From the NCBI RefSeq assembly GCF_019744875.1, contig NZ_JAIETU010000011.1, positions 10,723-74,722 of the forward strand: a DNA stretch of 64,000 nucleotides. The letters are read 5' to 3'. A program made the translations under genes and the position numbers. The stretch comes from Hyphomicrobium sp. GTDB taxonomy: Bacteria; Pseudomonadota; Alphaproteobacteria; Rhizobiales; Hyphomicrobiaceae. The notes below the pieces were generated by a model. That model had not been told where the DNA came from. It was given only the letters and a program-made list of their open reading frames with translations, and did not search any database. Below are positions 4,281-45,252 of the stretch, piece after piece (within the stretch, counting starts at the first letter, position 1; each line of letters starts with the position of its first letter).

Positions 4281-4323
4281 AAGGCAGCGGCCTCTCCCCA
4301 TTCAGAGAAGAGGCCGCCAACAA

Positions 4324-5064
<741 letters not shown>

Positions 5065-5144
5065 CTGCGGTCTCCGTAGTAGGCTTCTCGACAGTCGCCC
5101 GTATCTCGAGGCGGGGTCAGGCGATATATAGCGACCCGTCACTG

Positions 5145-5171
5145 CAACGCCAATCGCGGCGACATGGTTCA
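5145..5171 (-). promoter_or_regulatory. Candidate ECF-type promoter upstream of the SOD gene (TGAACC-N16-CGTTG)
   Basis: Minus strand reads TGAACCATGTCGCCGCGATTGGCGTTG. AAC to CGT spacing is 17 nt. It shares GCCGCGAT with the spacer of the 2078-2105 motif. Confidence 0.3.
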
Positions 5172-5199
5172 TCACTGGGTACAAGGCGAGCACGGATCA

Positions 5200-12872: not shown

Positions 12873-13138
12873 CGGGCCGCCGGAGAAACTTCCGGCATGG
12901 TTACCGCAAGGTTTCCAAATTGCTTAAGCTTTGATTTCTTGCCGGCCGGAAGCGGCCCGTTCGCCTCGAAACGAGTCGCGGGGCAACCGTTCCTTGGCGA
13001 AACGCCTGTTCCCTCGTTTACTGCTTATCATGAGCGCGCCCCCTATCGTTTGCTTCCAGAGGCCGCGGCACACCTGGCATTTCAGGCCGTGCCAGCCGCC
13101 TTCGGATCAGAAGCGACAGCGCTCAGAGGTAAACAGGG

Positions 13139-13408
13139 ATGGCACGTTTTGAATTTTCTTCCGAAGACGTCGTTGACGTTTCGGCACAGGGCGGCAGCAC
13201 GGATGCGCTCTACCAGCTCGGACTGATGTACTGCGTCGGCCGGGATGTCGGCGTGAACCTCGTCGAGGCCCACAAGTGGTTCAATCTCGCTGCCATGCGC
13301 GGCAACGATGACGCCAAGGCCTACCGGCTCGAAATCTCCCGCGAGATGACCAAAAAAGAAATCGCGGCCGCCCAGAAGAGCGCCCGCGAATGGTTGCGTT
13401 GCCACTAA
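13139..13408 (+). CDS. Sel1-repeat (TPR-like) small protein
   Basis: ALYQLGLMYCVGRDVGVNLVEAHKWFNLAAMRGNDDA is a Sel1 repeat. Confidence 0.7.
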   Translation: MARFEFSSEDVVDVSAQGGSTDALYQLGLMYCVGRDVGVNLVEAHKWFNLAAMRGNDDAKAYRLEISREMTKKEIAAAQKSAREWLRCH

Positions 13409-13427
13409 AGAAGCTGGCGTAGGTTTT

Positions 13428-14318
13428 TTAGGCTGCCTCGCCGGCTTCTTCGACCCGCGCGGCGCCCTGTACAGCCTTCTGGACCTTCTCGAAGGCGCGC
13501 ACTTCAATCTGCCGAATACGCTCGCGTGAGACGCCGAATTCCGTCGACAGCTCCTCGAGCGTGACGGGCTCGTCCGCGAGACGGCGCGCTTCGAAAATTC
13601 TCCGCTCACGATCGTTGAGCGTTGCCAGTGCGTCGCTCAGATACGACTTGCGGCGGCCCATCTCGTCGTCCTTGACGAGCGTTTCCTCCTGGTCGGGCGC
13701 ATCGTCGACGAGCCAATCCTGCCATTCTCCGGATTCGGAGTCGGCACGCACGGGCGCGTTGAGCGAGGCGTCGCCGCCGAGACGGCGGTTCATCGAAACG
13801 ACGTCTTCTTCCGACACGCCGAACTTGGTGGCGATCGTCTTGACGTGCTCAGGCTTCAGATCGCCTTCTTCCAGGGCCTGAAGCTGGCTCTTGGCGCGCC
13901 GCAGGTTGAAGAACAGCTTCTTCTGGGCGGCCGTGGTGCCCATCTTCACGAGGCTCCACGAGCGCAGGATGTATTCCTGGATCGAAGCGCGGATCCACCA
14001 CATCGCGTACGTCGCCAAGCGGAACCCGCGTTCGGGCTCGAAGCGCTTGACGGCCTGCATCAGGCCGACGTTGCCTTCGGAGATCACTTCGCCGATCGGC
14101 AGGCCGTAACCGCGATAGCCCATTGCGATGCGCGCGACGAGACGCAGATGCGAGGTGATCAGCTCCTGCGCCGCATCCGTATCGCCGTCATCGCGCCAGC
14201 GCTTCGCCAGCATGTATTCCTGATCCGGCTCCAACATCGGAAACCGGCGGATTTCCTCGAGGTAGCGCGACAGCCCATTCGAGCCGCCGGCAATCGTCGG
14301 AAGTGATTTTGTCGCCAT
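13428..14318 (-). CDS. rpoH: RNA polymerase sigma-32 (heat-shock sigma factor)
   Basis: RpoH box QKKLFFNLRRAK. Also LRLVARIAMGYRGYGLP and ATYAMWWIRASIQEYILRSWS. Confidence 0.95.
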   Translation of the reverse strand: MATKSLPTIAGGSNGLSRYLEEIRRFPMLEPDQEYMLAKRWRDDGDTDAAQELITSHLRLVARIAMGYRGYGLPIGEVISEGNVGLMQAVKRFEPERGFRLATYAMWWIRASIQEYILRSWSLVKMGTTAAQKKLFFNLRRAKSQLQALEEGDLKPEHVKTIATKFGVSEEDVVSMNRRLGGDASLNAPVRADSESGEWQDWLVDDAPDQEETLVKDDEMGRRKSYLSDALATLNDRERRIFEARRLADEPVTLEELSTEFGVSRERIRQIEVRAFEKVQKAVQGAARVEEAGEAA

Positions 14319-28682: not shown

Positions 28683-29083
28683 GGCAGAGATGCCGGGGGG
28701 CATCGAGTATTGCGTGGGGGAAACTGATGTCGCGGCCTGCCGCTGCAGCTATTGCTGCGGGCGTTTTTCAAACAAATTCGACGTTCGCTGAGGCTCAGCG
28801 ATTTCGCTGCTCCGGCAGCAGATCCAAGGTATCGAGCCTGCGCCCGGGGTTTCCAGCCCCCATTCGAGCTCAGAGTGACGGACCAGGTGGTCCTCCCGCC
28901 TAAGGGTCGCGTCTCACGCTTTTCCCGCATGATTTAGCGCTCTGCTATCCGCGACCAGCACCCTCACGCCCATCAGAACAGGGCCGACCGGTCCTGCGCG
29001 GAACCGATCATGCCGACACCCAACAACATATCAAACGTGGTGAGCCACATCGGCCATCGCGCGTATCGCTAGGAGCGTTGCGT

Positions 29084-31447
29084 ATGAGAGAAGTGAAATT
29101 CGCGCTGACTGCTGCATTGTTTATGGCGCCCATGCCGGCGCTGGCGCAGGAAGCGAAGACCAATGAGAAAATCGAAAGCCTGCCGCCTGTCACCGTGACC
29201 ACCAATTCGCCGGCGAAGGCAGCAAAGTCCGCTGTTGCGAAGAAAAAGCCGCAGGCCGCGCCTGTAAGCACTCAAAATGTGCAGATCGAAGGGGCCAACG
29301 AGGCCCCGTCAACTCCCTCCGTCACGAGCAAAATTGTCGGCGGCGTGATTGTCACGAATCCGGATCTCGGGCGGGTCAGTAGCGTCACGCGCGAGGGCCT
29401 CACACTGTTCGGTGGTGGGGCGCAGACGAGCTTCTATCAAGCCGCCAACATCCTGCCTTCCGTGAACGTTGAGAGCCCTGATCCCTACGGCCTTAGCGCG
29501 ACGCGCAACATCAACATTGCGGGCAAGTCAGACTTTCATCTCTCCCGCAACATCAACGGGCTCCCCGTCGCCGGGATCGTGGGTGGTGCCGATCTCTACG
29601 ATCTCGAGAACATCTATCGGCTTGACGTCTATCGGGGAGCGATCCCGGCTGACAAAAGTCTTGGCATGTCCAACGCGTCCGGCGTGATCGACCAGATTAT
29701 TCTTGGTCCGCAAGACAAATCATCGAGCTTCTTTTCGCAGAGCTTCGGATCCTGGGATTTCAGCAAGACGTTTGCGCGTTTCGACAGCGGGCTGTTGAGC
29801 ACGGGCACGAAGTTCTTCGTCTCGGGCTCGGTTACGGACGCGGACAAGTGGACCGGAGTGGGCGATTCATCGCGCGATAACGCCGCTTTGGGCTGGAGCC
29901 AGAAGTTCGGAGACAACCTGAACGTCGACGTCAACGCCGTCTACAACAAGTTCGACGGCAATCCCTATCGTGCGCTGACCTATGCGCAGACGCGCGATCT
30001 CAAGAGCAACTACAAATTCGACTACAACACCGCTTTGACCGGCAATCCAGCGGCCGACGTCAACTATTACAAATTCAACCGCTCGAGCGCAGAGACCTAC
30101 GCGCTCCAAGCAAACATCGACTACGAGTTCTCCGAAGGCCAGCACGTCGTGTTCAAGCCCTACTATTGGAACAACGATGGCGTGCAGTATTCTGCAGCCG
30201 GCAACAACGTCCAGATTTGGCGTCAGGAAAACGATAACGTTGGCGGCGTGCTCGAATACAAGGGCCAGTTCGGAACCGGCACAGACCTCACAGTCGGATA
30301 CTGGTGGCAGTCCATGGCGCCTCCTCCGCCGCCGACTGACCAGCGTCGCTTCAGAGTCACGCCGACTGGGGACTTGGCGTTCGTGTCGTGGAACACGATC
30401 GCAAAGATCGATGATTTCGTCATCAACAGCCCGTACGCGCAGCTTACGCAGACTTTCGGATCGATCACCGTCACCGGCGGATTGCGCTACATGAGCCTCG
30501 GTGCGCCGGAGATGCAGTATTTCAACGGAGCGGGCGTGCCTGATGGCACCTTGGATGATGCCCTGGCCACTAATCCTGCTCTTCTCCCCGGCACCTCGGT
30601 GGCGCAGCACGACTACAACGAGTTCCTTCCGAACATCGCCATCACCAAGGATTTCGGCGCCGGATGGAGCGCAAACATCGCATACGGTCGCAACCTGGGG
30701 CGGCCGGACTGGGGTCCGCAGGCAAACAACTACATTTCCAACCGCGCTGCCTTCCAGGCCAAAGGCATCACGCTTCAGGATCTCGTTGACAAAGTTAGAC
30801 CTGAAATTGCCGATCAGATTTCGGCTCAAGTCAGCTTCCAGGGAAATGGCCTGACGGTCATTCCCTCCGTCTTCTATGCTGAGCGCGCCAACAAGCAGGT
30901 GAAGATTATCGATCCCGGCATCGGCCCCAACATTGCCTATTACGAAGGGACCGGGTCGAGCACGGAATACGGCGCTGAATTGCAGGTGGGCTATCAGTTC
31001 GGGTCGGAACTTTTTGTCTTCGGTTCGGGAACACTCGCCTCTGAGACCTTCGATGCCGACACGGCAACGCTGAGCGGCGGCGCGCTGCTCGGCACCAAAG
31101 GAAAGCAGATCCCCAACACGCCCCAGACGATGCTCAAAGCCGGCCTGACCTATAGCTGGGAAGGCTTCTCGTTCACGCCGGTCGTCCGGTACATCGGGGA
31201 ACGCTATGGCGACGCGTCGAACCTACAAAAGGTCTCTGCGTATACGGTGGCCGATTTTACTGTCGGCTATGACGCCACCCGCCTGTTCGATCTGGAAGAG
31301 GTGACAATGAGGGTTGGCGTCATGAACGTGTTCGATAGCAAGTATGTGTCTCAGATCGCGCCTAACGATTTCGATCTGAGCTCGAACGCGACGTACTACG
31401 TGGGTGCCCCGCGTACCTTCGTTGGCACCGTGGCGGTGAAATACTAG
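29084..31447 (+). CDS. TonB-dependent outer-membrane receptor
   Basis: Signal peptide, plug domain, beta-barrel, C-terminal …TFVGTVAVKY. AGGAG lies 8 nt upstream of ATG 29084. Confidence 0.9.
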   Translation: MREVKFALTAALFMAPMPALAQEAKTNEKIESLPPVTVTTNSPAKAAKSAVAKKKPQAAPVSTQNVQIEGANEAPSTPSVTSKIVGGVIVTNPDLGRVSSVTREGLTLFGGGAQTSFYQAANILPSVNVESPDPYGLSATRNINIAGKSDFHLSRNINGLPVAGIVGGADLYDLENIYRLDVYRGAIPADKSLGMSNASGVIDQIILGPQDKSSSFFSQSFGSWDFSKTFARFDSGLLSTGTKFFVSGSVTDADKWTGVGDSSRDNAALGWSQKFGDNLNVDVNAVYNKFDGNPYRALTYAQTRDLKSNYKFDYNTALTGNPAADVNYYKFNRSSAETYALQANIDYEFSEGQHVVFKPYYWNNDGVQYSAAGNNVQIWRQENDNVGGVLEYKGQFGTGTDLTVGYWWQSMAPPPPPTDQRRFRVTPTGDLAFVSWNTIAKIDDFVINSPYAQLTQTFGSITVTGGLRYMSLGAPEMQYFNGAGVPDGTLDDALATNPALLPGTSVAQHDYNEFLPNIAITKDFGAGWSANIAYGRNLGRPDWGPQANNYISNRAAFQAKGITLQDLVDKVRPEIADQISAQVSFQGNGLTVIPSVFYAERANKQVKIIDPGIGPNIAYYEGTGSSTEYGAELQVGYQFGSELFVFGSGTLASETFDADTATLSGGALLGTKGKQIPNTPQTMLKAGLTYSWEGFSFTPVVRYIGERYGDASNLQKVSAYTVADFTVGYDATRLFDLEEVTMRVGVMNVFDSKYVSQIAPNDFDLSSNATYYVGAPRTFVGTVAVKY

Positions 31448-31473
31448 AGGACGGCACGAATGGAGCGTCGCAG

Positions 31474-32550
31474 ATGCTCCATTCGTGTGCTTCCGGGAAC
31501 GACTGCATGCTCCTGATGCAAACGATCGCTCGCCGATCTATCCCGCTATGGCTCTCTCTCGTCGTGTTGGTTGCTGCTGGAGCGTCCCCTGTCCGCGCAG
31601 ATCGCCTCGTGACGGATATGGCCGGACGGACTGTGAAGGTGCCTGACAGGATTGCGCATGTGGCAACCATCGGGCCCGTTCCGGTTCTGAACAGCTTTGT
31701 GTTCGCCATGGGAGAAGCGGCGACGATCGCCAACAATCTACCGCCCAATCTCGGAGGACCGAGGTGGCGCTTCCAGTATGTGTTCGCGCCGCAAATCGCA
31801 AAGCAGCCGGTTATTCAAACTGGTGACGGGCCGAGCATAGAGGGTGTCGCCCAGCTTGCCCCCGATGTCGTTTTGACGATGGATCGGCCCACCATCGATC
31901 TGGTGGAGCGGGCGCGCACGCCCGCGATCTATTTGGCGTGGCGGGAGCCGGACGATGTGAAGACGGCAATGCGTCTGCTTGGGGCCTTGTATGATAAGCC
32001 GGATGTGGCGGAAACCTACTGCCGGTACTTCGACGACTCTCTCGCCAAGGTCAGCGCCCGTACCGATGCGTTGTCCGCAGCCGATCGGCCACGCGTTCTT
32101 TATGCAAACCTCAAACGCCTAACGCAGCCGCATCGCATCGCCGAGTGGTGGATCGCGAAAGCCGGAGGAAAAAGCGTAACCGATGACGGTCGCACCAGCG
32201 AAGCGTTCAACTTTTCAATCGAGCAGGTTTTGCTCTGGGACCCCGAAGTGATCATCGTTAGCGGAGCCGACGAGATCGCTGATGCCTACGCCGATGCGCG
32301 GCTCGCCGGCGTTTCGGCCATAAAGAAGCGTCGCGTGTATGCCGTGCCGATGGGCGCGCACGTTTGGGGGAATAGAACAGCCGAGCAGCCCCTGACCGTT
32401 CTCTGGGCGGCCAAGAACTTCCATCCCGAGCTATTCAAAGATGTGTCCCTCACTGAGGAAGTGCGCTCCTTCTACGCCAAGTTTTTTAAGGCCGGCCTGA
32501 GCGACAACGACATCGATGTGATCCTGGAGGGTCGCGCCGGTGCCCGATAG
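31474..32550 (+). CDS. Periplasmic substrate-binding protein, iron-chelate/B12 (cluster A, FecB/BtuF-like) type
   Basis: Signal peptide ending …GASPVRA/DR and Peripla_BP_2-like layout. The start may instead be 31507 or 31516. Confidence 0.75.
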   Translation: MLHSCASGNDCMLLMQTIARRSIPLWLSLVVLVAAGASPVRADRLVTDMAGRTVKVPDRIAHVATIGPVPVLNSFVFAMGEAATIANNLPPNLGGPRWRFQYVFAPQIAKQPVIQTGDGPSIEGVAQLAPDVVLTMDRPTIDLVERARTPAIYLAWREPDDVKTAMRLLGALYDKPDVAETYCRYFDDSLAKVSARTDALSAADRPRVLYANLKRLTQPHRIAEWWIAKAGGKSVTDDGRTSEAFNFSIEQVLLWDPEVIIVSGADEIADAYADARLAGVSAIKKRRVYAVPMGAHVWGNRTAEQPLTVLWAAKNFHPELFKDVSLTEEVRSFYAKFFKAGLSDNDIDVILEGRAGAR

Positions 32551-32620
32551 ACAGAAACACGAAGGGGCTCTGAGCTGCGACGATCAGAGGCGTCAAGCTT
32601 CGCCCGATGCCGCAGCGCCA

Positions 32621-33643
32621 ATGGGCTCGACGGTTCGCATCGGCCTTTCCGGATGCGGCGGCGGCCTGGAGTCGATCTCGTCATCGAAGCTGCTGGATCT
32701 CGTGGAGAGGATCGAAGCCTGGGGGTTCGATGCGCTGTGGCTGAACGAGGAGCACTTCCAGGGCAGCATCGTTGAAGTCGAAGGGCGCCGATGCCATTCG
32801 CCTCTCATCCTTGCGAGCGCCGTTCTTGCGCGTACGCGCAAATTGCGCGTCGGCTTTTCCGTGCTGCTGCTTCCGCTTCATCACCCGGTGCGTCTCGCGG
32901 AGGAAATCGCGACACTCGACGTGCTGTCCGACGGCCGGGTCGATTTCGGCATTTCGCGAGGCGGCAATGGTCGTTATCTCGAAGTGTATGGTGTGGCTCC
33001 CGAAAGTGTGGAGGAGCGCTTCCAAACGACACTGGAGTTTTGCCTCCAGGCTTGGCAGCAAGGCACGATGACGTTCGGAGGGAATGCCTACTCGATCGAG
33101 CCGAAGCCGGTCCAGAAGCCTCACCCTCCTGTCTTCATCGGCACCTATTCCGACGAGATGGCGGGCTGGACGGCGCGCGAGGGCCACGCGCTGATATGCC
33201 ATGGCATCACGAGCATGGACAATCAACGCCGCCTGGTGAAGGCCTTCAGTGACGCCGGAGGCGACGTGCGACGCGTCCCGTTTGGACGATTTGTCTATGT
33301 GAGCGAGACGGACGCGAGTGCGCGCAAAGAGCTTTGGCCGACGGTGCTGAAATTGACGGAGAGGCTGAGAGGCTTCGGTCTGTTCAATCGTAAGGGTGTT
33401 GTCGCCGAGCGGGATCTCGATCCGGAGGTCTTCTTCAACGAGATGGTCATTGCGGGCAGCCCCGAGACGTGCGCGCGGAAGGTTCTCGCGCTCCATGACG
33501 AACTCGGGTTGACGTACCTCAATGCCTTGAGCGCGTTCTTCGGCTTTTTGCCGCTCGAACTTCTCGAAAAGTCGCTGGCTCTATTGGGAACTGAAGTCCG
33601 GCCGCGCGTGGAGCGCGTGCTGGCTGCCGGTCTCACATCATGA
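32621..33643 (+). CDS. Luciferase-like (LLM class) flavin-dependent oxidoreductase
   Basis: GFDALWLNEEHF…LAEEIATLDVLSDGRVDFGISRG…KPHPPVFIG. Sits between the binding-protein and permease genes. An alternative GVG-overlap start lies at 32540. Confidence 0.8.
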   Translation: MGSTVRIGLSGCGGGLESISSSKLLDLVERIEAWGFDALWLNEEHFQGSIVEVEGRRCHSPLILASAVLARTRKLRVGFSVLLLPLHHPVRLAEEIATLDVLSDGRVDFGISRGGNGRYLEVYGVAPESVEERFQTTLEFCLQAWQQGTMTFGGNAYSIEPKPVQKPHPPVFIGTYSDEMAGWTAREGHALICHGITSMDNQRRLVKAFSDAGGDVRRVPFGRFVYVSETDASARKELWPTVLKLTERLRGFGLFNRKGVVAERDLDPEVFFNEMVIAGSPETCARKVLALHDELGLTYLNALSAFFGFLPLELLEKSLALLGTEVRPRVERVLAAGLTS

Positions 33644-34659
33644 GACGGCCGCGTTTATTCTCAATCAGTGCGCTGCTGATGCTGGCGTTGCTTGGCATGA
33701 CGGCAGTGTCGCTCGCTGTTGGCCGTTATCCGCTGAGCCTCGCGGACATTTGGGAGTTCCTGCAGGCGTCGGTCGGCCTGCGCGATATTGGGTCAGAACG
33801 GTACGCGCTGCTCTACAACATCATCGTCGAAATTCGATTGCCGCGAGTTCTGGCGGCCATCCTGATCGGCGCGGCGCTGGCGATATCGGGCGCCTCATTC
33901 CAAGCCGTGTTTCGCAACCCACTGGTCTCTCCCGGCATCCTCGGCGTGCTCGGGGGTGCCAGCTTCGGAGCGGCGCTTGGCCTGCTGCTGTCGGATCAAT
34001 GGCTCGTGATTCAACTGCTTGCCTTCACGATGGCGCTTTTGGCAGTTGGGTTTGGGGTTTTTATCGCCAATCTCTTCGGGCCAGCGACGATGGTGACGCT
34101 TGTTCTCGGCGGCATCATCAGTGGTGCGCTGTTCACAGCCTTGTTGTCGATTACCAAGTACACGGCGGATCCCTACAATGAACTGCCGGCAATCGTTTAT
34201 TGGCTGATGGGTAGTCTCCAGGCCGTGCAGTTGACGCACATCACCGCGGTGGCAATCCCGATCATCGCCGGCATCGTGGTGCTGACGCTGCTCGGTCACG
34301 CACTCGATGCCCTGTCGATGGGTGACGACGAAGCCCGTTCACTGGGAGTTCCCGTCACGGCTGTTCGCTATGGTGTGATTATCATGGCTACTCTTATCTC
34401 CGCACTGTCGGTGTCGATCGCGGGGATCATCGGATGGGTTGGGCTCGTGGTCCCGAATTTCGCGCGTCTGGCGTTCGGGCCAGCGAACACCCGCCTTCTG
34501 CCGCTCAGCGCGCTTATTGGATCGTTGTTTCTGCTGAGCGCCGACCTCATCACGCGTGTCATAACTCCTGCAGAGATCCCCATCGGGATCGTTACAGAGC
34601 TGCTTGGCATTCCCGCATTCCTACTTGTCCTTGGAAGGGCTAGGCGGGCTTGGATCTAG
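33640..34659 (+). CDS. FecCD-family ABC permease (iron-chelate type)
   Basis: IVEIRLPRVLAAILIGAALAISGASFQAVFRNPLVSPGILG is a FecCD signature. Overlaps the LLM gene stop. Confidence 0.9.
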   Translation: MRRPRLFSISALLMLALLGMTAVSLAVGRYPLSLADIWEFLQASVGLRDIGSERYALLYNIIVEIRLPRVLAAILIGAALAISGASFQAVFRNPLVSPGILGVLGGASFGAALGLLLSDQWLVIQLLAFTMALLAVGFGVFIANLFGPATMVTLVLGGIISGALFTALLSITKYTADPYNELPAIVYWLMGSLQAVQLTHITAVAIPIIAGIVVLTLLGHALDALSMGDDEARSLGVPVTAVRYGVIIMATLISALSVSIAGIIGWVGLVVPNFARLAFGPANTRLLPLSALIGSLFLLSADLITRVITPAEIPIGIVTELLGIPAFLLVLGRARRAWI

Positions 34660-34679
34660 ATCAGGCAAAACCCATCCAG

Positions 34680-35480
34680 ATGGAGATGTCGCGAGGGCCT
34701 CATCTCGTGGCGCGCGACATACATTTTCGGATTGGCGCGCACAACATCCTGAAGGGCATCGATCTGGCCATTGGTCCCGGTGAGATCATGTCGCTCCTGG
34801 GTGCCAACGGAGCGGGCAAGACAACACTGCTGCGCGTATTGCTGGGGCTGATTTCGCCCGCCCAGGGACAGGTTCTTATCGACGACACCGCGACTTCGTC
34901 TCTGGCGCGACGAGACGTGGCGCAACGCATGGCCTATGTGCCGCAAGTCCACATGACGCCGTTCCCCTACACCGTCCGCGAAGTCGTCGCGATGGGACGG
35001 CTGTCGCGGAAGGGCTTGTTGGGCAATCCGTCCGATCGCGATCAAGAGGTCGTCCAAAGCGTTCTCGAGCAGATCGAGATTTCGCGCCTCGCCGATCGCG
35101 TCTACAGCGAGATTTCCGGAGGTGAGCGTCAGCTCACGCTCATCGCGCGGGCGCTCGCGCAGCAAGCGTCGATCCTCATCCTGGATGAGCCGATGGCTAA
35201 CCTCGACTTCGGCTATCAGACCTTGCTCAGCACGCATCTGAGAAAACTCGCCCAATCGGGTCACACGATCCTCATGAGCGGCCACGACCCGCAGCTCGCT
35301 TTTCATTCGTCGACGCGCATCGGGCTGCTGTTTGATGGCCGTCTCGAGCTGGACGGCAAGCCACAAGACGTTTTGACCGCAGGGACGATGCAAAGGCTTT
35401 ACGGGGTCGATGTCGACATCATCGCGCTCGCTGACGGCCGAAGAGCATTTTTCCCGGTTGTCAGCCCGGTTAGTCAGTGA
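34680..35480 (+). CDS. ABC transporter ATP-binding protein (FecE/FepC-like)
   Basis: Walker A GANGAGKTT, signature SGGERQ, Walker B ILILDEP. Confidence 0.9.
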   Translation: MEMSRGPHLVARDIHFRIGAHNILKGIDLAIGPGEIMSLLGANGAGKTTLLRVLLGLISPAQGQVLIDDTATSSLARRDVAQRMAYVPQVHMTPFPYTVREVVAMGRLSRKGLLGNPSDRDQEVVQSVLEQIEISRLADRVYSEISGGERQLTLIARALAQQASILILDEPMANLDFGYQTLLSTHLRKLAQSGHTILMSGHDPQLAFHSSTRIGLLFDGRLELDGKPQDVLTAGTMQRLYGVDVDIIALADGRRAFFPVVSPVSQ

Positions 35481-35515: not shown

Positions 35516-36178
35516 CTACCCGCGCTTGGGCGATTGATCCGTCGGCTTCTGCGCGACGAGAAAGATGCGGGCGTCTTTCCGCGTAGATCCATGGCGCGCG
35601 CGTTCGATGATCGTAAAGCCGGCAGCTTCGATCTCTCCTTCGAGCTCAGCCGCAGAGAAGCACGATACATACGGAGCCTTGCCCGCGAACTGAGCAATCG
35701 GAATGGCGTATCGTATGAGGGGGTTCATCTCGGAGAGGCACGGGGTCTTCGAGATGAACAGGCCGCCGGGCTTCAATCGTCGATGGAGCGATGAAAGCGT
35801 CGAGGGCCGTGCAGGGATAAGATGTAAGAGGTTGAACGCGAGAACGGCGTTGTACGCGGCATCCGGTCCCGGAACGTCCCCAGCGGCCGCAACCGCGAAG
35901 TCGACATTCGTGCATCCTGCGGTCGCCACCTTTCCGCGCGCGATCGCGATCATCTCGCTCGACACGTCCGTTGCAATCAGGCGCCCCACGGCGGGAGCGA
36001 GCTTCAGCGCGGTCGTGCCCGTCCCGCAGCCGACCTCGAGCACGGTGTCTGTGGCTCCGAGGATTTCCCGCGTGCGCTCGATCGTGCGCTCGTAGCCAAT
36101 CGTGTCCTTGATCGGCGCGGCCGCATATTTGCGCGCTGCCTTGTCCCAGAACTGCGTGTCGTCAGTGGTGCTGACCAT
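35516..36178 (-). CDS. Class I SAM-dependent methyltransferase
   Basis: VLEVGCGTGTTALKLA motif I. Starts at MVSTTDD. The upstream part of track ORF 35516..36484 is non-coding. Confidence 0.8.
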   Translation of the reverse strand: MVSTTDDTQFWDKAARKYAAAPIKDTIGYERTIERTREILGATDTVLEVGCGTGTTALKLAPAVGRLIATDVSSEMIAIARGKVATAGCTNVDFAVAAAGDVPGPDAAYNAVLAFNLLHLIPARPSTLSSLHRRLKPGGLFISKTPCLSEMNPLIRYAIPIAQFAGKAPYVSCFSAAELEGEIEAAGFTIIERARHGSTRKDARIFLVAQKPTDQSPKRG

Positions 36179-36263
36179 TGCGATCCCCCTCGGCCGCAAC
36201 GATCTAACACATGCAAAATTCATTGGTATTGCCGCTGATTGCACATGGCATATACAAATATGC

Positions 36264-37157
36264 ATGGATGAGATCGATTGGAACCTTGTGCGGGCCTTCC
36301 ATGCGACGGCCGATGCCGGCTCGCTCTCGGCTGCGGCACGCAAGCTGGGGCTGACACAGCCGACGTTGTCGCGCCAGGTTGCGGCGTTGGAAGCAAAGCT
36401 CGGCGTCACTCTGTTCGAGAGAGTGGGCAAAAAGCTCATAGCGACCGACGTCGCCCTTGGACTTCTCGCGCATGCCCAGAACATGGCGACAGCGGCCGAC
36501 GCAATGGCGCTCGCGGCCGCTGGATCCGTTCAGGACGTGGAAGGTCGCGTCACCATTTCGGCAACGGATACGATCGCGGCGTATGTCCTGCCCGATATCG
36601 TCGCGCGCCTTCGGCGCGAGGCGCCTCAAGTCACTGTTGCCATTGTGGCCTCGAATTCATTCAGCGACCTGAGACGGCGCGAAGCCGACATCGCCATCCG
36701 TCATGTGCGTCCGACTGAGCCCGAGTTGATCGGCCGGCTGGTGCGCGAAACGACGGCTCACTTCTACGCCTCCGCCCGGTGGATTGCCGAGAACGGATTG
36801 CCGGCCTCGTTTGAGAGCATTTCCGCAGCGGATCTCGTGGCCTTCGAGCCTGTCGAGCAATTTGCGGAGCATCTGGCTCGCATCGGTATCACTGTCAGGC
36901 CCGATGAATTTCGCATGGTCTCGGAGAACGCGGTCGTGCTGTGGGAGATCGTTCGCAGCGGGCTTGGCGTTTGCATGATGCTTCGCGAAATCGCGGAGCG
37001 CACGCCGGGTATAGTCCGTCTGCTCCCCGATTTGCCCGGAGTTCCTGTGCCGATCTGGCTCGTCAGCCACCGCGAGCTGCGCACGAGCCGGCGCGTGCGC
37101 CTGGTCTTTCAGATCCTCGCCGAGGAACTGAGTGGCGAGGGCTGCGTTCCGTGTTGA
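36264..37157 (+). CDS. LysR-family transcriptional regulator
   Basis: HTH motif LVRAFHATADAGSLSAAARKLGLTQPTLSRQVAALE. Divergent from the methyltransferase. GCATAT-ACAA-ATATGC sits at the start codon. Confidence 0.9.
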   Translation: MDEIDWNLVRAFHATADAGSLSAAARKLGLTQPTLSRQVAALEAKLGVTLFERVGKKLIATDVALGLLAHAQNMATAADAMALAAAGSVQDVEGRVTISATDTIAAYVLPDIVARLRREAPQVTVAIVASNSFSDLRRREADIAIRHVRPTEPELIGRLVRETTAHFYASARWIAENGLPASFESISAADLVAFEPVEQFAEHLARIGITVRPDEFRMVSENAVVLWEIVRSGLGVCMMLREIAERTPGIVRLLPDLPGVPVPIWLVSHRELRTSRRVRLVFQILAEELSGEGCVPC

Positions 37158-37302
37158 GTGTGTGCCGGATGTCGCGGAACCGATACGTGTGTGAGGCAGT
37201 GTGGTAGCTGTGCGCCACCTCACTGTATGGATGACGCGACGCCCAACAAACGACACGATGCCGTGGCCGTTGGTGGCCAAGGCTGATGTCAATTTCGATC
37301 GA

Positions 37303-37755
37303 ATGCAAATGAGCCGTATCCGCAGACTGGCCGCGAGCTTTCTGATCGTTCTGCTGGTGCCATCTTTGGCGCTCGCGGCGACGCCGCTTCGCTATTGCAT
37401 CGGGCCGTCCGGTCATCAGGCGCTCGAGTTTGTCATCGACGGCATCTCCCACAGCGGCAATCACGCAAGCCACGGTCACTCATCGCAAGATGCTGACGAC
37501 TGCAGCGATGCCGGCAGCACGGCGTTCTTAGACGCCGAGAGGTGCACCGATACGGCGTTGATGGACACGGCTTCGGCGCCGCCCGTGGTGGACCTGAAGC
37601 ACCTCACAGTGTCGTCGCTGTTAGCGCAGCCGTTGTTCGTGATGCCCGCAGCGTCCGCCGACGATTTGCGCGGTCCTCCTATCGCCAATAGTCACAAGCC
37701 TCAGCTTGTCGATCCGCGCGTTGCGATCCGTCGCACGACGGTGCTGCTCATTTAG
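37303..37755 (+). CDS. Secreted Cys/His-rich protein of unknown function
   Basis: Signal peptide (…VPSLALA/ATP), then RYCIGPSGHQALEFVIDGISHSGNHASHGHSSQDADDC…ERC. No family recognised. A hairpin + TTTTCC follows at about 37774-37810. Confidence 0.55.
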   Translation: MQMSRIRRLAASFLIVLLVPSLALAATPLRYCIGPSGHQALEFVIDGISHSGNHASHGHSSQDADDCSDAGSTAFLDAERCTDTALMDTASAPPVVDLKHLTVSSLLAQPLFVMPAASADDLRGPPIANSHKPQLVDPRVAIRRTTVLLI

Positions 37756-38084
37756 AGCCATCGCGCCCTGCGCGTGCCTCACCTGCAATGCGGGTGAGCA
37801 CACTTTTCCAAACATCTGACAGCTCCGGCCTTGCCTTCGGCAATGCTCCAGCGTGCTCACGCTAACCGCCTCATTTCGATGAGTGGGGATCGATGAGTCG
37901 TGCGCGGATGCAAGTCGAGTTGGCCGCGCGGACGCTACGGACGTCACGGAGGCGGGCGCAAGCCCTGCCACCTCAAGGAACACGGCAATCGACAAGGAGG
38001 AAGCACGCCCTAAGCGACGAAACATTCATTGCGGCCGGTGAGGCCGTTCCAACCTCAACGCAGACCTAAACCTGGAGATGAAAA

Positions 38085-38345
38085 ATGAAATCAGTTGTTC
38101 GTATCGCAGCACTTGCTCTGAGCCTCGGCGCGCTGTCGCTTCCCGCGTTTTCGGCCGATGATCACGGGCATTGCTCGGGCGCAAATGTCTGCGCCGGTGA
38201 CGCTGCTTGTGAAAAGCAGGGCTACAAGGAGCTGACGAAGGACGAGTGCTCCAAGATCGACGGCGCCAAGTTCGAGGCTTCCTCGCATGAGGGCGAAGGC
38301 CACAAGGACGGCGATCACTCCAAGCACGACCACGACAAAAAGTAA
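38085..38345 (+). CDS. Orphan paralog of the bufferin-type precursor: four Cys, His-rich C-terminal tail
   Basis: Signal peptide (…SLPAFS/ADD). GHCSGANVCAGDAACEKQGYKELTKDECSKIDGAKFE aligns with 2197-2463. Tail is SSHEGEGHKDGDHSKHDHDKK. GGAG lies 8 nt upstream. Confidence 0.75.
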   Translation: MKSVVRIAALALSLGALSLPAFSADDHGHCSGANVCAGDAACEKQGYKELTKDECSKIDGAKFEASSHEGEGHKDGDHSKHDHDKK

Positions 38346-38353
38346 CGGACAGG

Positions 38354-38384
38354 GCCGCGCGGCATTCTTCGGATGCCGCGCGGC
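38354..38384 (+). terminator. Perfect 12-bp GC hairpin after the orphan precursor (no U-tract)
   Basis: GCCGCGCGGCAT-TCTTCGG-ATGCCGCGCGGC, 9 nt after the stop and 38 nt before the next ORF. Confidence 0.5.
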
Positions 38385-38422
38385 TGCCCGTTCCGTTGGG
38401 CAACCCATAGGGAGTACGACCC

Positions 38423-38683
38423 ATGCAAAAACTAGTCTGCCTTCTATTTGCAGGCTTCGTCTTTTCTCTCAGTCCGGCATCGGCGAATGTCGGCTCAGGC
38501 CTGCTCGCCAAGGCGTCCAGCCTCGACCGCGGTGTCACCGAAGGGCAGGTGCTTGAGATACGCCATCGCCACCGGCACTGGCGGCGGCATCATCACCATC
38601 GGAGATGGGGGCACCGCCATCATCGTCGGCACTGGGGGTTCAAGCTTCACCGGCGCCATCATCATCATCACCGCTATCATTGA
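38423..38683 (+). CDS. Secreted peptide with extreme His/Arg/Trp-rich C-terminal tail
   Basis: Signal peptide MQKLVCLLFAGFVFSLSPASA/NV. Tail is RHRHRHWRRHHHHRRWGHRHHRRHWGFKLHRRHHHHHRYH. GGGAG lies 8 nt upstream and a hairpin follows the stop. The tail frame is ambiguous (see findings). Confidence 0.45.
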   Translation: MQKLVCLLFAGFVFSLSPASANVGSGLLAKASSLDRGVTEGQVLEIRHRHRHWRRHHHHRRWGHRHHRRHWGFKLHRRHHHHHRYH

Positions 38684-38769
38684 CAGCGGTGGGCGCGGCG
38701 GTTGGGAAGTCCCGCCGCCGCGCTTGTCATATCCGCTGCGATAGCGGGCGCGTCCGGTGCTTCGGCGAT

Positions 38770-40482: not shown

Positions 40483-42714
40483 TCAGAACGAGACCTTGGT
40501 GCGCACGCCGTAGGTCGCCGGGTCGCCGAGCGCGCCATAGGCGCCCACGCCGCCGGTTCCGGCGAAGTCGTAGGAGTTCACCACGTAGCGCTCGTTGAGG
40601 ATGTTGCGGCCGAAGAAGGCGATGTCCATGTCGCCGTACTTGAAGCCGAGCGTCGCGTTGAGAAGCGTGACGCCCTTCTGCTTCGAGGCATTGGCTTCGT
40701 CGAGGTAGTAGTCACCCAGCGTGCGGGCATCGACAAGCAGGTAGCCGCCCCAGTCGGCCCGGTACTCGAAGCCATAGTTCGTTGTGAACGAGGGAATGAA
40801 GCTGACCTCGTTGCCGCTGAAATCGGCGTAGTCATTCACGAACTCGCCGAAAGTCGCATGCGTCACGCCGAGCCCGCCGAAGAGGCGGAGCTGGGACGTC
40901 ATCTGCAAGCTCGCCTCCAGCTCGCCGCCGTAGCTTTCGACGCGCTCAGCATTATTGACGCCGAACTCCGACGGGCTGAACTGGTTCAGCACCTGATAGT
41001 TCTCGGTGTCGGAATAGAAGAGCGAGCCGTTGAGGGCGAGGAAGCGTCCGAACGGCCGGCTCTTGAAGCCGATCTCGTAGTTGTCCGAGGTTTCTTCGTC
41101 GAAGCGGAACTCGTTGATGTCGGTCAGCGCGCGGTCGGCGATGAAGCCGCCCGGCTTGAAGCCGCGCGCATACTTCGCATAGGCCGTGAAGTTCGAGGTC
41201 GGCGCATAGAGCAGCGCAATCGAGGGCAGAACCTTCGCATAGTCCTTCTCGGCTTCTGCGATAAAGGGAGCTGGATGCGCGTTTTCTCCCTCGCGCCCTG
41301 CCCACTCGTAGCGCATGCCGGGGACAATGGTGAAGCCGCCGCCGAGCCCGTAGCGCAGCTCGCCGAAGACGGCGACGTCGTCGCTGGTCGTCTTGGCGTG
41401 CCGCAACGGCATGCCGGGAATTTCGATGTCGGGATAGAGCAGTGTGCCGCCGTCGAAATCCATGACGGTGTGCGCGGCGAAGACGCCGGCCGACCACTGA
41501 AGCTGCGCCGAGGGATCGTTCGACGTGAGGCGTACTTCCTGCGTCAGCGAGCGGACCTCCTCTTCCGAGTAGCCGATGTAACGCCACATCGGATCGGGAA
41601 TGGCCGTCTGGTCGCCGTCGTTGTGGAAGTCCCATGTCGAGCGGCGGTTTGCCGTGACCGACAGGATGTCGAACGTGTCGAAGCGGCTTTTGATGCGCAG
41701 GGCCTGCAGGTCCTGGCCGATGCGCTCCTTGCCGGGATCGTTATAGGTGACGTCGAACGGGGCGGTGGCAAGCTGCGCGAACGGAATGAACGGATCGCTC
41801 TGGTCGTCAAAGCGCTCGTGCTGCAGGATGAAATCGATGGTCGTGCGGCTTGTGGGCACGATGGTGAGCTTCGCCCGGCCGCCGTAGGATTCCTTGTCGC
41901 CGTAGGGCTCGTTCAGGGCGGTATTGTCATAGAAGCCGTCGCGCTTCTGGCCGATGAAGTCAGCGGTCAGGAAGGCGGAGCTTGAGCCGAGCGGCGTCGA
42001 GAAGCCTGCGCCGGCCTCGTACGCGTCGTAGTTTCCGGCCGATCCTGTGACGTAGCCGGTTGGCTTGTCGGTTGGGCCGCCCGTCTGGATGTCGATGACG
42101 CCTGCCGGGCGGCTGAACCCGAACGATGTGCTCTGCGGTCCCTTGAGCACGTTGATCTGGTCAACGCGCGTAAACATTGAGGCGCGGGCCAGTGTCGTCA
42201 GCGCGGGGATGTCATCCACGTAGTAGCCGACGCCGGGAACGACGCCAGGGGACGACTGGTAGCCAAGCTCGTGCACGCCGCGGATCGAGAAGGTCGGCAT
42301 GCGGTTGCCGCCGGAGTCGAAGCCGGTGACGTTCGGGAACGATTGGGCAAGATCGCGCGCGGTGCTGAGCCCGCGTGTTGCGACCTCGTCTCCGGTCATG
42401 ACGGAGACGCCCGAAGGAACATTCGCAAACTCGGCAGTGGCCTGCGAAATGCCATCCGCGGGTGGTTTAGCGGCGGGCGGAGGCTGGGGCTGCGGCGCGG
42501 TCGCAGCGACTGGCTGCTCAAGTGCCTTCTTTTGCGCCGCGGGTTTCTTCGCCTTCTTGGCGGTGACGCTCAGAGGCGGCAGATCATACGTCTCGTTGGC
42601 GTCCGCCGGCTTGGCGGCCTGCTGGGCCACAGCTTCTCCGGCGGCCACGACGGCGCAAGAAACGGCATATGCCAGAACGCAGGCCATTCGGCCCGATGCG
42701 AGAAAAGCGGTCAT
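40483..42714 (-). CDS. TonB-dependent siderophore receptor
   Basis: Signal peptide, Pro/Ala-rich linker, plug (SGVSVMTGDE…FSIRG), barrel, C-terminal YGVRTKVSF. Confidence 0.9.
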   Translation of the reverse strand: MTAFLASGRMACVLAYAVSCAVVAAGEAVAQQAAKPADANETYDLPPLSVTAKKAKKPAAQKKALEQPVAATAPQPQPPPAAKPPADGISQATAEFANVPSGVSVMTGDEVATRGLSTARDLAQSFPNVTGFDSGGNRMPTFSIRGVHELGYQSSPGVVPGVGYYVDDIPALTTLARASMFTRVDQINVLKGPQSTSFGFSRPAGVIDIQTGGPTDKPTGYVTGSAGNYDAYEAGAGFSTPLGSSSAFLTADFIGQKRDGFYDNTALNEPYGDKESYGGRAKLTIVPTSRTTIDFILQHERFDDQSDPFIPFAQLATAPFDVTYNDPGKERIGQDLQALRIKSRFDTFDILSVTANRRSTWDFHNDGDQTAIPDPMWRYIGYSEEEVRSLTQEVRLTSNDPSAQLQWSAGVFAAHTVMDFDGGTLLYPDIEIPGMPLRHAKTTSDDVAVFGELRYGLGGGFTIVPGMRYEWAGREGENAHPAPFIAEAEKDYAKVLPSIALLYAPTSNFTAYAKYARGFKPGGFIADRALTDINEFRFDEETSDNYEIGFKSRPFGRFLALNGSLFYSDTENYQVLNQFSPSEFGVNNAERVESYGGELEASLQMTSQLRLFGGLGVTHATFGEFVNDYADFSGNEVSFIPSFTTNYGFEYRADWGGYLLVDARTLGDYYLDEANASKQKGVTLLNATLGFKYGDMDIAFFGRNILNERYVVNSYDFAGTGGVGAYGALGDPATYGVRTKVSF

Positions 42715-42856
42715 TCAGTAGCCCCCACGGCGATCAAACTCATGCTGGGATAGGAGGGCAGCAGGAGATCGATAACAATCGCCGCGGCTTTGGGGATTCC
42801 GTCTTTGTCTTTGGCTTTTCGCGTCGAGCGAAGGGGGCAACGGATGAGACCGGCGG

Positions 42857-43699
42857 CTAGGTCTCATCGCGGCCGACGCACGTGCTCGGCGATACGCCGA
42901 AACGCTTGCGGAACTCGGTCGAGAAATGCGCCGGATGGTAGCCGCAGCTGTAGGCGGCTTGGGACACGGACATTTCGCCCTGCTCGAGCAGCATCTTGGC
43001 GTGATCGAGGCGTGCCGCTTTGACGTAGGCGTAGACGCTCGCGCCGAACAGGGCGCGAAACAGCTCTCCCAACCGGTGGGCATTCATGCCGACTTTGCGG
43101 GCAAGGTCGGGAACGCTCGGCGGATCGGAAAGTGAGGCCAGTAACATTCCGCGAGCCGCATGAACGCGTTCGATCTCGCCGGCGCGGGCAGAGGGTACGC
43201 CGTCCGTGCCCGATGGACTGGCTCTGCCCATCGCATCGCTCTGGGCAACGACGGACAGCAGCTCCAGCGCCTTGCCGGAAAGGTAGAGCCGACGTGCGGG
43301 ACCAACCAGCGGGCAACCGAGCATCTGCCAGGCCAGGGCATTCGCCGGGCGATGATTGTTCCACGATCGGTAGTTTGTCTTGGGAGGCGCGAGGGCGGTG
43401 CGGGCGCCGGGCCCGGCGATGGCGTCTACGCGCTCGAAGGGGAGACGGATGAAGACGGCGCTAAGCTGGCAGTCCTGCGGCACCCTATGCTCGATGCTCA
43501 CCGGATCTTCGAGGCAGTAGTTGATCACCGTCCGCGGTGTCCAGGTGTTGTCGAAACCGGAGCGCGAGGTGGAAATCGTGCCTTCGGTCAGAATACCGCA
43601 CCAGATTCCGGGCAGCATCGAAGAGTCCCAGCGTTGCGCTTCGGACAACGTCATCCTCGAGAGGATGATTTCCAGGCCGTCGAATTGGACGGTTTCCAT
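42857..43699 (-). CDS. AraC-family regulator (PchR/RhrA-like siderophore-responsive type)
   Basis: C-terminal double HTH (VPDLARKVGMNAHRLGELFRALFG…SVSQAAYSCGYHPAHFSTEFRKRFG). Lies upstream of the receptor gene. Confidence 0.85.
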   Translation of the reverse strand: METVQFDGLEIILSRMTLSEAQRWDSSMLPGIWCGILTEGTISTSRSGFDNTWTPRTVINYCLEDPVSIEHRVPQDCQLSAVFIRLPFERVDAIAGPGARTALAPPKTNYRSWNNHRPANALAWQMLGCPLVGPARRLYLSGKALELLSVVAQSDAMGRASPSGTDGVPSARAGEIERVHAARGMLLASLSDPPSVPDLARKVGMNAHRLGELFRALFGASVYAYVKAARLDHAKMLLEQGEMSVSQAAYSCGYHPAHFSTEFRKRFGVSPSTCVGRDET

Positions 43700-43739
43700 A
43701 TCTGGTTCCTACACCTGCAAACCTCACGCTTACATAATA

Positions 43740-43756
43740 TTGACCGCAATAGTCAA
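43740..43756. promoter_or_regulatory. Inverted repeat TTGAC-N7-GTCAA (contains TGA-N9-TCA)
   Basis: TTGACCGCAATAGTCAA, 41-57 nt upstream of the AraC ATG (43699). Confidence 0.35.
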
Positions 43757-43876
43757 GTTTAAGCCCGCGGCTGGCGCGCGACCGCAGTCGGGTGTGGCCG
43801 TCCGGGCGCCGGTTGGTCTGTCGGAGCTTTGGAAATTGGAATCTGGGTCGTCGGAGCGCCGGTTTGGCAGCACGCG

Positions 43877-44080
43877 CTAGGGATTTGGCCCTTGGGCCGC
43901 GCTGGGCCGGCGGGCGGAGTTCGGCCAGAGACCGTAGGCGCAAACGGCCACAGGCACGGCGAGAAGCGCCCAGGATATCGCGTCCCAACCGGCGTCGCCC
44001 GTCAGTCCAATGAGCAGACCCGCGATCGTCGCGACTGCCATGACGGCGGGATAGGTCCAAATGCCGGAGCGCCTTCGCAC
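43877..44080 (-). CDS. Small two-TM membrane protein
   Basis: GTG start overlaps the PepSY gene's TAG stop by 1 nt. Two hydrophobic helices. Confidence 0.45.
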   Translation of the reverse strand: MRRRSGIWTYPAVMAVATIAGLLIGLTGDAGWDAISWALLAVPVAVCAYGLWPNSARRPSAAQGPNP

Positions 44081-45252
44081 TATCTCCGACCTCCATCACG
44101 GAGGCGGCGTGCCCGCAGGATGCGGCCGGACCACAGAACCAGGCCCGATCCGAGAACGAAAATCGTGAGCAGGGTGAGGAGTGCCCAGATTATTTTGAGG
44201 GGGAGGCCACCGTAGTCGCCAAAGTGCAGCGGTTGCGAGACGAGAAGGGCCGTGACGTACCAGGGCATCGCGCGCGAGTCGACGACGCGGCCGGTGGCCG
44301 CATCGCAGACCACGGGTTTGAGAAGGCGCGATGTCAGGGGCGAGGCGCCCTTCATGAACACGGCATAGTGGCTGGCGCTCGAAAAGATCGATCCCGGAAA
44401 CGCGATGAACGACGGCTTCATTCCGGTCGCCAGGGCTTGGGCGGCGTCGGCCGTTTGCTGGACGGAGGACAGCGTTTCGGGGCGCGGCCTGCCGGCTTCC
44501 TTGCCCAGCATGTCGGCGAGCTGGTCGTACTGCCAGTACTTTATGGTGAGATCGGCAAAGGCGTTGAGCACACCCGTTGACCCAACGACCAGCATCCAGC
44601 ATCCGATCACGATGCCCACGAGGTTGTGAAGATCGAGCCAGCGCACGATGGCCACGCGATGGTGGCGGACTTCGCCAAATTTCAGACGCCGCATGGAAGG
44701 CCCGTACAGGGCAATGCCGCTGGCGATAGCCAGAACGAAGCAGGCGCCCATCACCCCGAGAAAGATCTTGCCCTTCAATCCAAGCAGCAACTCTGTGTGC
44801 AGGCGAAGGATAAAGGGAAGCACGCCCGACTGCGCATTTATCTCATCGAGGATAGCGGCTCGATGGGCATCGACGCGGACGGTGCGGTTCTTGGTGTAAT
44901 CCGATGTGGGCGTTGCTCCGATCGAGAGGAGAACGACGCCCGGCTGATCGTCGTCCCAGAACACGAATTGGACCGCGTGACCTGGCAGATGCGCGTGGCC
45001 CGCTGCAACGATGCGGTCGAGGCTCGCGGGCTGTGTGCCAGGTGCGACGGGCTGCGGCGCGGCGTGTGTTCCGCTCAGCTCTTCGATCTAGTGGGCGAAA
45101 ATGAGAGGCAGTCCCGTCAGGCATAGAACGAGCAGGAATGCTGTGGCTACCAGGCTGCTCCACGTATGGACGACCGACCAGAGCCGCCCGCTGCGGATAC
45201 GGCGGGCGGCTGCGGGATAGAGGATCGTTGTGGGATGACCGTCCGCCGGCAT
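44080..45252 (-). pseudogene. PepSY-associated TM protein (PiuB/FoxB-like) interrupted by an in-frame TAG
   Basis: ATG at 45252 overlaps the receptor stop (TAATG). It reads MPADGH…WSVVHTWSSLVATAFLLVLCLTGLPLIFAH-TAG(45088-45090)-IEELSG…FVFWDDDQP…, continuing in the same frame. Confidence 0.75.

Follow-up and report, generated by a model that had tools for sequence, protein, structure and literature searches.

The locus analyzed here raises the question of what becomes of a RiPP precursor-like peptide whose gene stands far from any maturase gene: is it modified in trans, has it turned into an ordinary metal-binding protein, or is it a leftover? The gene in question (38085-38345, forward strand) lies in a stretch of 64,000 nt from Hyphomicrobium sp., referred to below as the window, 34 kb from the bufBC genes of a canonical buf operon. 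This operon comprises the 6-Cys precursor gene bufA2 (2197-2463; NF050166, 86.4 bits, cutoff 60), the gene of the MNIO maturase BufB (2522-3460, with the ATG probably at 2579; 380 bits, cutoff 310), and that of the DUF2063 partner BufC (3471-4280), all on the forward strand. Genes for an ECF sigma factor (743-1291) and an RskA-type anti-sigma factor (1294-2004) are located directly upstream of bufA2 on the same strand, and the candidate ECF promoter TGAAAC-N16-CGTAA at 2078-2104 (forward strand) is the sole instance of this motif in the window. The dyad of the maturase is ERDD, as in MNIOs of the Cys-Lys type. A tblastn search of the 64-kb window yielded no second MNIO or DUF2063 gene, the only ones being those at 2522-4280, which agrees with the first-pass annotation that none is found near the peptide gene.

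The product of the 38085 gene is an 86-aa peptide with exactly the sequence that the first-pass annotation had quoted. The gene is preceded by a Shine-Dalgarno sequence GGAG (38074-38077), 8 nt before the ATG and conserved in orthologous loci, and ends with a stop codon at 38343-38345. Inspection of the sequence and of the alignment of relatives delineates a Sec-type signal peptide (approximately 38085-38153) with a basic n-region (MKSVVR), a hydrophobic stretch, and an A-x-A/S site (AFS followed by A); a core of the form HGHC...C...C...C.KIDGAKFE (38154-38276); and the His-rich tail noted earlier, ASSHEGEGHKDGDHSKHDHDKK (38277-38342), which contains 22 residues, 5 of them His. All of these elements are on the forward strand. 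The mature peptide is acidic (pI 5.5) and contains 7 His, whereas mature BufA2 is basic (pI 8.3) with a single His. Directly 3' of the stop codon, folding revealed a perfect GC-rich 15-bp hairpin (38353-38385, forward strand); the region 38340-38425 has a folding energy of -44.1 kcal/mol (z = -3.6), and none of 200 shuffled sequences was equally stable. The hairpin has no T-run and was not called by the terminator scan; it is possibly a terminator or an mRNA stabilizer. Neither a sigma-70 promoter nor a canonical terminator was found around the gene by the promoter and terminator scan.

The proposed colinearity with the BufA2 precursor of the window (the 2197 peptide), which was to be given up should the similarity prove insignificant, withstood a BLASTP comparison (E = 8e-15, 46% identity over 59 columns, a single 14-column internal gap). 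A multiple alignment with 12 relatives reduces the gap to a clean deletion of 13 residues, exactly the two Cys modules that had been reported as missing; the 38085 peptide has 4 Cys and the 2197 peptide has 6. Scoring on the BufA2 model NF050166 separated the two peptides, since the 2197 peptide passes at 86 bits, whereas the 38085 peptide reaches 27.1 bits, in two stretches, against the cutoff of 60. The peptide shares with BufA2 (Buf_6/12Cys, NF050166, 'Cys-Lys' captophorin group; e.g., Caulobacter vibrioides CCNA_03001) a Sec signal, the homologous core GHC.G.N.C.G...C...G.xE..K.EC.KI.GAKFE, an outer Cys pair placed for a disulfide, a central C-x5-C, and a predicted small strand-plus-helix fold. 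It differs in having 4 Cys, while Buf2 has been described with 6 or 12 (PMC12452194), in the HMM score, in an additional His before Cys-I, in the absence (in the window copy) of Lys after the central Cys, and in the acidic mature form with its His-rich tail. Judged from its sequence, the 38085 peptide is clearly homologous to BufA2, although it fails on Cys number, curated cutoff, Cys-Lys motif, and MNIO linkage.

The AlphaFold2 model of the peptide (overall 67.7, core pLDDT 81-86) contains strands at residues 27-31, 48-51, and 62-65 and helices at residues 40-45 and 52-56, with Cys-I (C30) predicted on a strand and Cys-IV (C55) on a helix. The modeled core matches the published account of the bufferin fold (PMC11626156), the comparison being one of descriptions only. 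No match to the peptide was obtained from the PDB, either by sequence or by fold.

Homologs of the 38085 peptide form 41 clusters in a large protein database and are 80-108 aa long. Family members are named 'hypothetical protein' by NCBI, which the low score of the 38085 peptide on the BufA2 model (27 bits) explains. The four Cys are invariant in all 42 sequences (42/42), as are, among others, H27, G28, H29, V35, G38, D39, A40, K44, G46, K57, G60, and F63. The residue following Cys-II is A, K, Q, or G across the family, and that following Cys-III is E, rarely V or Q. Four His residues of the tail are conserved in at least 90% of sequences. When 1.84 billion representatives were searched exhaustively with the family profile, four of them fell into the tight family (E < 1e-25), below which the scores drop sharply to the next-best matches, canonical 6-Cys BufA2s at 61 bits or less; the family is therefore a narrow subfamily that stands well apart. 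Other variants with few Cys and no His tail also came up in this search, two with 4 Cys (P0191 and P0196) and one with 3 (P0184), and thus module number varies within the superfamily.

In a scan that covered each species with one genome, the family was present in 12 genomes, all of Hyphomicrobium or other Hyphomicrobiaceae except for one bin labelled 'Proteobacteria bacterium'. The scan pattern misses BufA2s of the CEKVEGAKF type, and the absence of canonical matches was therefore not used. Among the carriers are H. zavarzinii ATCC 27496, a type strain in culture, and a complete chromosome of 4.13 Mb (OZ257134.1) with two copies; no copy was found in the plasmid collection. Codon comparisons among 15 orthologs place the family under strong purifying selection in both core and tail, with dN/dS at 0.07 in the former and 0.12 in the latter; the signal peptide has a value of 0.5. 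The low values for core and tail indicate that both are functional. A chance reading frame in GC-rich DNA is ruled out by the 41 homologous clusters, the invariant Cys and His residues, and the dN/dS of 0.07-0.12.

The genomic context of the subfamily differs sharply from that of canonical BufA2. No BufB or BufC gene was found within 10 kb of any of the 15 distinct 4-Cys loci, whereas BufB is encoded directly downstream in 24 of the 34 loci of canonical BufA2 that the scan also gave, 23 of which (23/34) also have BufC (Fisher p = 8e-7, entered as 0/15 vs. 25/34, with 24/34 on recount). A further 25 metagenome 4-Cys loci likewise contain no MNIO gene (0/25). Conversely, Czc-type transport genes are present within 10 kb of 13 of the 15 4-Cys loci but of only 5 of the 34 canonical loci (Fisher p = 3e-6), as well as at 10 of 13 metagenome loci with long flanks. 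The island P-type ATPase scores above the Zn/Cd-type cutoff (495 > 313) and below the Cu-type one (379 < 397); the other island genes encode a ZitB-like CDF transporter, CusA/CzcA-family RND pumps, and a CsoR/RcnR-family repressor. By their family assignments, these transporters point to divalent cations (Zn/Co/Cd/Ni-like), and it is from the neighboring genes alone that we infer the metal choice of the peptide.

H. zavarzinii (L008) and L059, the closest relative of the window locus with a 94% identical peptide, show the archetype of the island. There, a gene for a secreted protein of no known family (up148) is followed by a secreted His/Gly-rich ORF, the 4-Cys peptide gene, one or two secreted His/Arg-rich ORFs, PEMT, CDF, and repressor genes on the minus strand, an up148 paralog, and OEP-CzcB-CzcA. 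The context is constant in that up148, secreted His-rich ORFs, and Czc-type transporters are present and MNIO genes are apart. As far as gene order and family assignments tell, the constant home of the family is a Czc-type efflux island with other secreted His/Cys-rich proteins. The description of the 38085 gene as an orphan is thus correct with respect to its maturase, from which it is unlinked, but not in the sense of isolation, since it is a family member in a conserved island. The search for a regulatory motif shared upstream of the 4-Cys genes was negative, the alignment giving only the Shine-Dalgarno sequence. A recurrent 'CACGGCAATC' block that had been considered as regulatory turned out to be coding sequence of the His/Gly-rich ORF.

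In the window, a fragment of 1.6 kb (37139-38716) has DNA homology to the L059 island; it lies between a LysR gene (36102-37157) and a cupin/MFS/TonB-receptor cluster. The fragment encodes, all on the forward strand, up148 (37303-37755, 150 aa, secreted), the conserved upstream partner of the peptide; a remnant of the secreted His/Gly-rich ORF (37897-38013), which is intact in L007, L008, L010, L011, and L059 and sits there between up148 and the peptide gene; the peptide itself; and, as a conserved downstream neighbor, a secreted low-complexity His/Arg-rich ORF of 86 aa (38423-38683; 82% identity in L059, 57% in L008). An internal deletion of ~275 bp has removed most of the His/Gly ORF, and no czc genes are found anywhere in the 64-kb window. 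Because the efflux genes are absent there, the window peptide may function on its own, or it may be a leftover. That it is a decaying, non-functional relic of a deleted island in this genome seems to us very improbable: the short stretch of island retained, the damaged His/Gly ORF, and the 64 kb without czc genes would fit such a history, but the reading frame, the Shine-Dalgarno sequence, and all invariant residues are preserved, up148 and the His/Arg ORF are intact, and the peptide differs from that of its closest relative at only 6% of positions.

The constant presence of up148 raises the possibility of another role for the peptide. Proteins of the up148 family are secreted, have ~148 aa and invariant Cys/His motifs, and match no Pfam or NCBIfam family. 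Their paralogs are encoded immediately upstream of OEP-CzcB-CzcA in related loci; czcI occupies the position in front of czcCBA in czcICBA operons, and the placement of the up148 paralog is thus a positional analogy. The peptide and up148 could accordingly be signaling or regulatory partners that sense periplasmic metal and modulate Czc expression or activity, with no bulk buffering. The tight pairing of the two genes, the second paralog at the head of the efflux genes, and the invariant motifs of up148 would speak for such a role. We nevertheless regard it as improbable, given that up148 belongs to no recognized family, that its structure model (pLDDT 45) is unusable, and that its likeness to CzcI is one of position only.

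The genomes that carry the peptide bear indirectly on whether it is modified. We estimate the chances as about even that the central Cys, C36 and C42, are modified to thiooxazoles by the resident BufBC acting in trans. These two residues retain the C-x5-C spacing observed between adjacent modified Cys of BufA2, each with a small residue before it. The C-terminal block C.KI(D/E)GAKFE, common to BufA2, is invariant and carries no modified residue; recognition is known to use the core and not the signal peptide (PMC11626156). The proposed survey of tail-bearing copies against MNIO clusters gave a split result, with co-occurrence in the same genome and no linkage at any of ~40 loci. BufBC co-occur with the peptide in all four genomes that are checkable among 13, namely the window genome, 12-62-95 (L017 and L024), co242_132 (L016 and L028), and probably H. 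zavarzinii, the last by NCBI name. The best 120 BufB matches, extending down to ~72% identity, include none on the 4.13-Mb or 580-kb peptide-bearing contigs, which at that depth is uninformative. In a survey of complete genomes, none of 864 genomes with a Buf2 precursor was devoid of MNIO (0/864; PMC12452194).

Several observations point the other way. In Hyphomicrobium, BufB has a far wider distribution than the 4-Cys peptide, which several complete genomes with BufB lack. In the window and at ten other loci, canonical bufA2 is preceded at a distance of 70-200 bp by the ECF-type motif TGAAAC-N16-17-CGTA(A/G), which is present at all evaluable loci with a sigma/anti-sigma pair (7/7); none of the 4-Cys loci examined has it in promoter position. 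In addition, the central Cys of the window copy are found in the contexts NVC-A (Cys-II) and AAC-E (Cys-III), the Lys after the modified Cys being replaced. In Cys-Lys-type MNIOs (ERDD), the second Asp has been modeled to contact this Lys (PMC13097082). The evidence on modification in trans is therefore mixed, with co-occurrence for it and the missing promoter motif and lost Lys against it, and such modification is possible.

A stronger version of this proposal holds that the peptide is an obligate trans-modified RiPP, functional only after BufBC have turned C36 and C42 into 5-thiooxazoles and then acting as a hybrid thiooxazole/His-tail metallophore. We consider this a tenable reading that falls somewhat short of an even chance. 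It would account for the homology, for the retention of the central pair with its small preceding residues, for the invariance of an unmodified block within the recognized core, for the presence of BufBC in every checkable genome, and for the confinement of the family to Hyphomicrobiaceae, where BufB is very common; it also accords with the MNIO-bearing state of all Buf2 genomes in the literature. It is harder to reconcile with the lack of MNIO linkage and of a promoter motif in common with the buf operon, with the loss of Lys and the Glu adjoining Cys-III, and with the fragility of an arrangement in which part of an island relies on a differently regulated host operon. The island context suggests that the peptide is not strictly dependent on the trans step.

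The opposite possibility is that the peptide has left RiPP chemistry behind and is an unmodified periplasmic metal-binding protein, with disulfides C30-C55 and C36-C42 and metal bound by His, Asp, and Glu only. Several features lean in this direction: the conventional ligands gained (the HGH N-terminus, the invariant Asp39, Glu43, and the four near-invariant His of the tail), the shift of charge from basic to acidic, the setting in a Czc island with other secreted His-rich ORFs, the missing MNIO linkage and ECF motif, and the lost Cys-Lys signature. However, the central Cys do not vary, nor do their flanks, and they are spaced like modified sites, none of the four checkable genomes is without MNIO, and Cys-Glu-Lys and Asn-Val-Cys are natural in MNIO clusters, the motifs NVCGG and QCEKA occurring in MNIO-PME1 clusters (PMC13097082). 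We accordingly hold this reading to be possible but rather doubtful.

The peptide is best explained as a BufA2-derived periplasmic metal-binding peptide that is probably an accessory of a Czc-type divalent-metal efflux island, an assignment drawn from homology and gene context. Its BufA2 homology, the loss of two Cys modules, the gain of a selected His tail, and the island context are directly supported; from these we infer export, disulfide formation, metal binding, and metal choice. The peptide would be exported by the Sec pathway and cut after AFS, and a structural disulfide may join Cys-I (C30) and Cys-IV (C55), like the outer Cys in Buf1 and Buf2. In the periplasm, the acidic mature form with its 7 His would bind a divalent metal, with the HGH N-terminus, Asp39/Glu43, and the tail providing the ligands, and the bound metal would be buffered or handed to the efflux machinery. 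C36 and C42 are candidate sites for thiooxazole formation by BufBC in trans, before export; should BufBC not act, the two Cys may instead form a second disulfide. The 'two-mode metal binder' of the first-pass annotation, a thiooxazole-type core joined to a His-rich tail, is a reasonable hypothesis. Its most far-reaching form would be a mobile Czc-type island that brings its own bufferin-derived precursor and no maturase, with host BufBC installing the two thiooxazoles in trans to give a hybrid thiooxazole-plus-polyhistidine metallophore for Zn, Co, Ni, or Cd; we consider this scenario unlikely, albeit conceivable.

Among known systems, small secreted ligand-rich proteins such as SilE/PcoE and CzcE, whose genes neighbor those of RND, CDF, or P-type efflux systems, are presumed to buffer metal in the periplasm. 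The 38085 peptide is not known to be related to them in sequence, and they are not known to derive from RiPP precursors. Bufferin 1 (BufA1, DUF2282) also has four Cys, of which the outer two form a disulfide and the inner two are modified, and a shift of -10 Da would be expected for the 38085 peptide if it were modified likewise; yet the latter has no DUF2282 match and belongs to a different sequence family, and BufA1 is encoded with MNIO, DUF2063, and DoxX, whereas the 4-Cys peptide is not. In contrast to BufA2, the 4-Cys genes are never beside MNIO/DUF2063 genes, although linkage is typical rather than required, unlinked members being accepted in the literature, and they are located in a Czc-type island and not behind an ECF sigma/anti-sigma pair.

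Stand-alone bufferin precursors have been reported as common, with trans-modification or lack of modification left open by the authors (PMC12452194), so the orphan state is not new in itself. Like those precursors, the 38085 gene is unlinked to an MNIO gene that is present elsewhere in the genome; unlike them, the unlinked state is fixed across the subfamily, which has its own conserved neighbors, a context that the survey does not note (PMC12452194). The same work describes MerC-Buf1 and MerC-Buf2 fusions in mercury operons, which hint at other metals and form a precedent for bufferin domains recruited to resistance against metals other than copper (PMC12452194). Here, by contrast, the peptide is free and secreted and the island is of the Zn/Co/Cd-type efflux kind. 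Stand-alone precursors, the trans question, and MerC fusions are thus already known (PMC12452194), and the His-tailed 4-Cys subfamily in Czc-type islands appears to be new: the papers searched contain no description of this subfamily, no link of bufferin-like peptides to Czc-type islands, and no description of up148 or the His/Arg partner ORFs.

The bufferins/captophorins, one of the largest RiPP classes, have so far been tied to copper. Two questions in the field are whether unlinked precursors are modified in trans and whether there are bufferins for other metals. The 4-Cys subfamily bears on both, being unlinked, located in a Zn/Co/Cd-type efflux island, and equipped with a selected His-rich tail; it is present in the cultured H. 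zavarzinii ATCC 27496, and for this species a canonical BufB is named by NCBI. The up148 proteins and the secreted His/Arg-rich ORFs are further unannotated components of these islands. If the peptide is modified, it would exemplify trans-acting maturation of an island-borne precursor; if it is not, a RiPP precursor would have turned into an ordinary metal-binding protein. Should the hybrid-metallophore reading be true, bufferin chemistry would extend from copper to Zn, Co, Ni, or Cd.

The 4-Cys gene, which encodes the secreted His-tailed BufA2 relative, is accompanied upstream by up148 (37303-37755, + strand), a member of a secreted family of ~148 aa that carries no annotation. The invariant motifs of this family are RYC.GPSGHQA.EFV..G..H.G...SH, C.D..LMDTAS.PP, and a C-terminal DPR....RR..VLLI. 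Loci contain up to three up148 copies, and paralogues (13098-13529 in the H. zavarzinii locus L008; 13555-13989 in L059, the closest relative of the window copy) immediately precede OEP-CzcB-CzcA, a slot that we take, by likeness of position, to be that of czcI in czc operons. In OZ257134.1, a complete 4.13-Mb Hyphomicrobiaceae chromosome, the 4-Cys gene is present twice, as diverged copies separated by 8 kb (L009/L001, 1726-1989 and 10001-10249) and accompanied by three up148 paralogues; one adjoins an EptA-type phosphoethanolamine transferase and an HlyD-type adaptor rather than a Czc pump.

Other neighbors of the 4-Cys gene are secreted, low-complexity ORFs of extreme His/Arg content (e.g., ...HRHRHWRRHHHHRRWGHRHHRRHWGFKLHRRHHHHHRYH), conserved at 57-82% identity: one in the window (38423-38683, + strand), two in L008 (10336-10593 and 10660-10986), and one in L059 (10353-10598). 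A weak match to "HHHH-motif protein" was the only family assignment obtained for these ORFs, whose products may be periplasmic metal sponges. A secreted His/Gly-rich ORF, whole in L007, L008, L010, L011, and L059, is represented in the window by a frameshifted or deleted remnant (37897-38013), where ~275 bp are absent in comparison with L059.

The fragment of the Czc-type metal-efflux island retained in the window sits amid metal- or siderophore-uptake genes (29078-35480 and 40483-47504), including three TonB-dependent receptors, a FecCD-type ABC system with a periplasmic binding protein, a luciferase-like monooxygenase, a PepSY_TM protein, and AraC regulators. In L059, the island is preceded, at a distance of a few kb, by the TIR-domain genes ThsB_TIR and TIR_2 (2729-5397), which suggests that the region is variable and island-rich.

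At the canonical buf operon, the stretch separating bufA2 from the RskA-type anti-sigma gene contains a candidate ECF-type promoter, TGAAAC-N16-17-CGTA(A/G) (2078-2104), which occurs at the equivalent place in L023, L024, L028, L033, L034, L041, L043, L046, L051, and L054. Another conserved block, GTCTCGACA ... TCTAAC/TATTAC, precedes the ECF sigma gene (approximately 640-680). The operon faces a convergent gene (4324-5193, - strand) for an Fe/Mn superoxide dismutase that carries a Tat-type signal, a layout kept in relatives (e.g., the L054 counterpart at 5181-5918). H. zavarzinii-type loci have a DoxX gene between bufC and the dismutase gene, whereas the window operon has none.

Neither BufB nor BufC was found in the available flanks of seven canonical 6-Cys BufA2 genes (L036, L037, L038, L042, L045, L048, and L052), several of them from Methyloceanibacter, in agreement with the numerous unlinked precursors of a published survey (PMC12452194). 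Some Hyphomicrobium canonical BufA2s bear short Met/Asp-rich C-terminal tails, e.g., ...EAMKMDDMKMDDKKG (tailed genes: L024, 9923-10222; L032, 9908-10222; L041, 9749-10189); thus, metal-ligand-rich C-terminal tails vary clade-wide, beyond the 4-Cys family.
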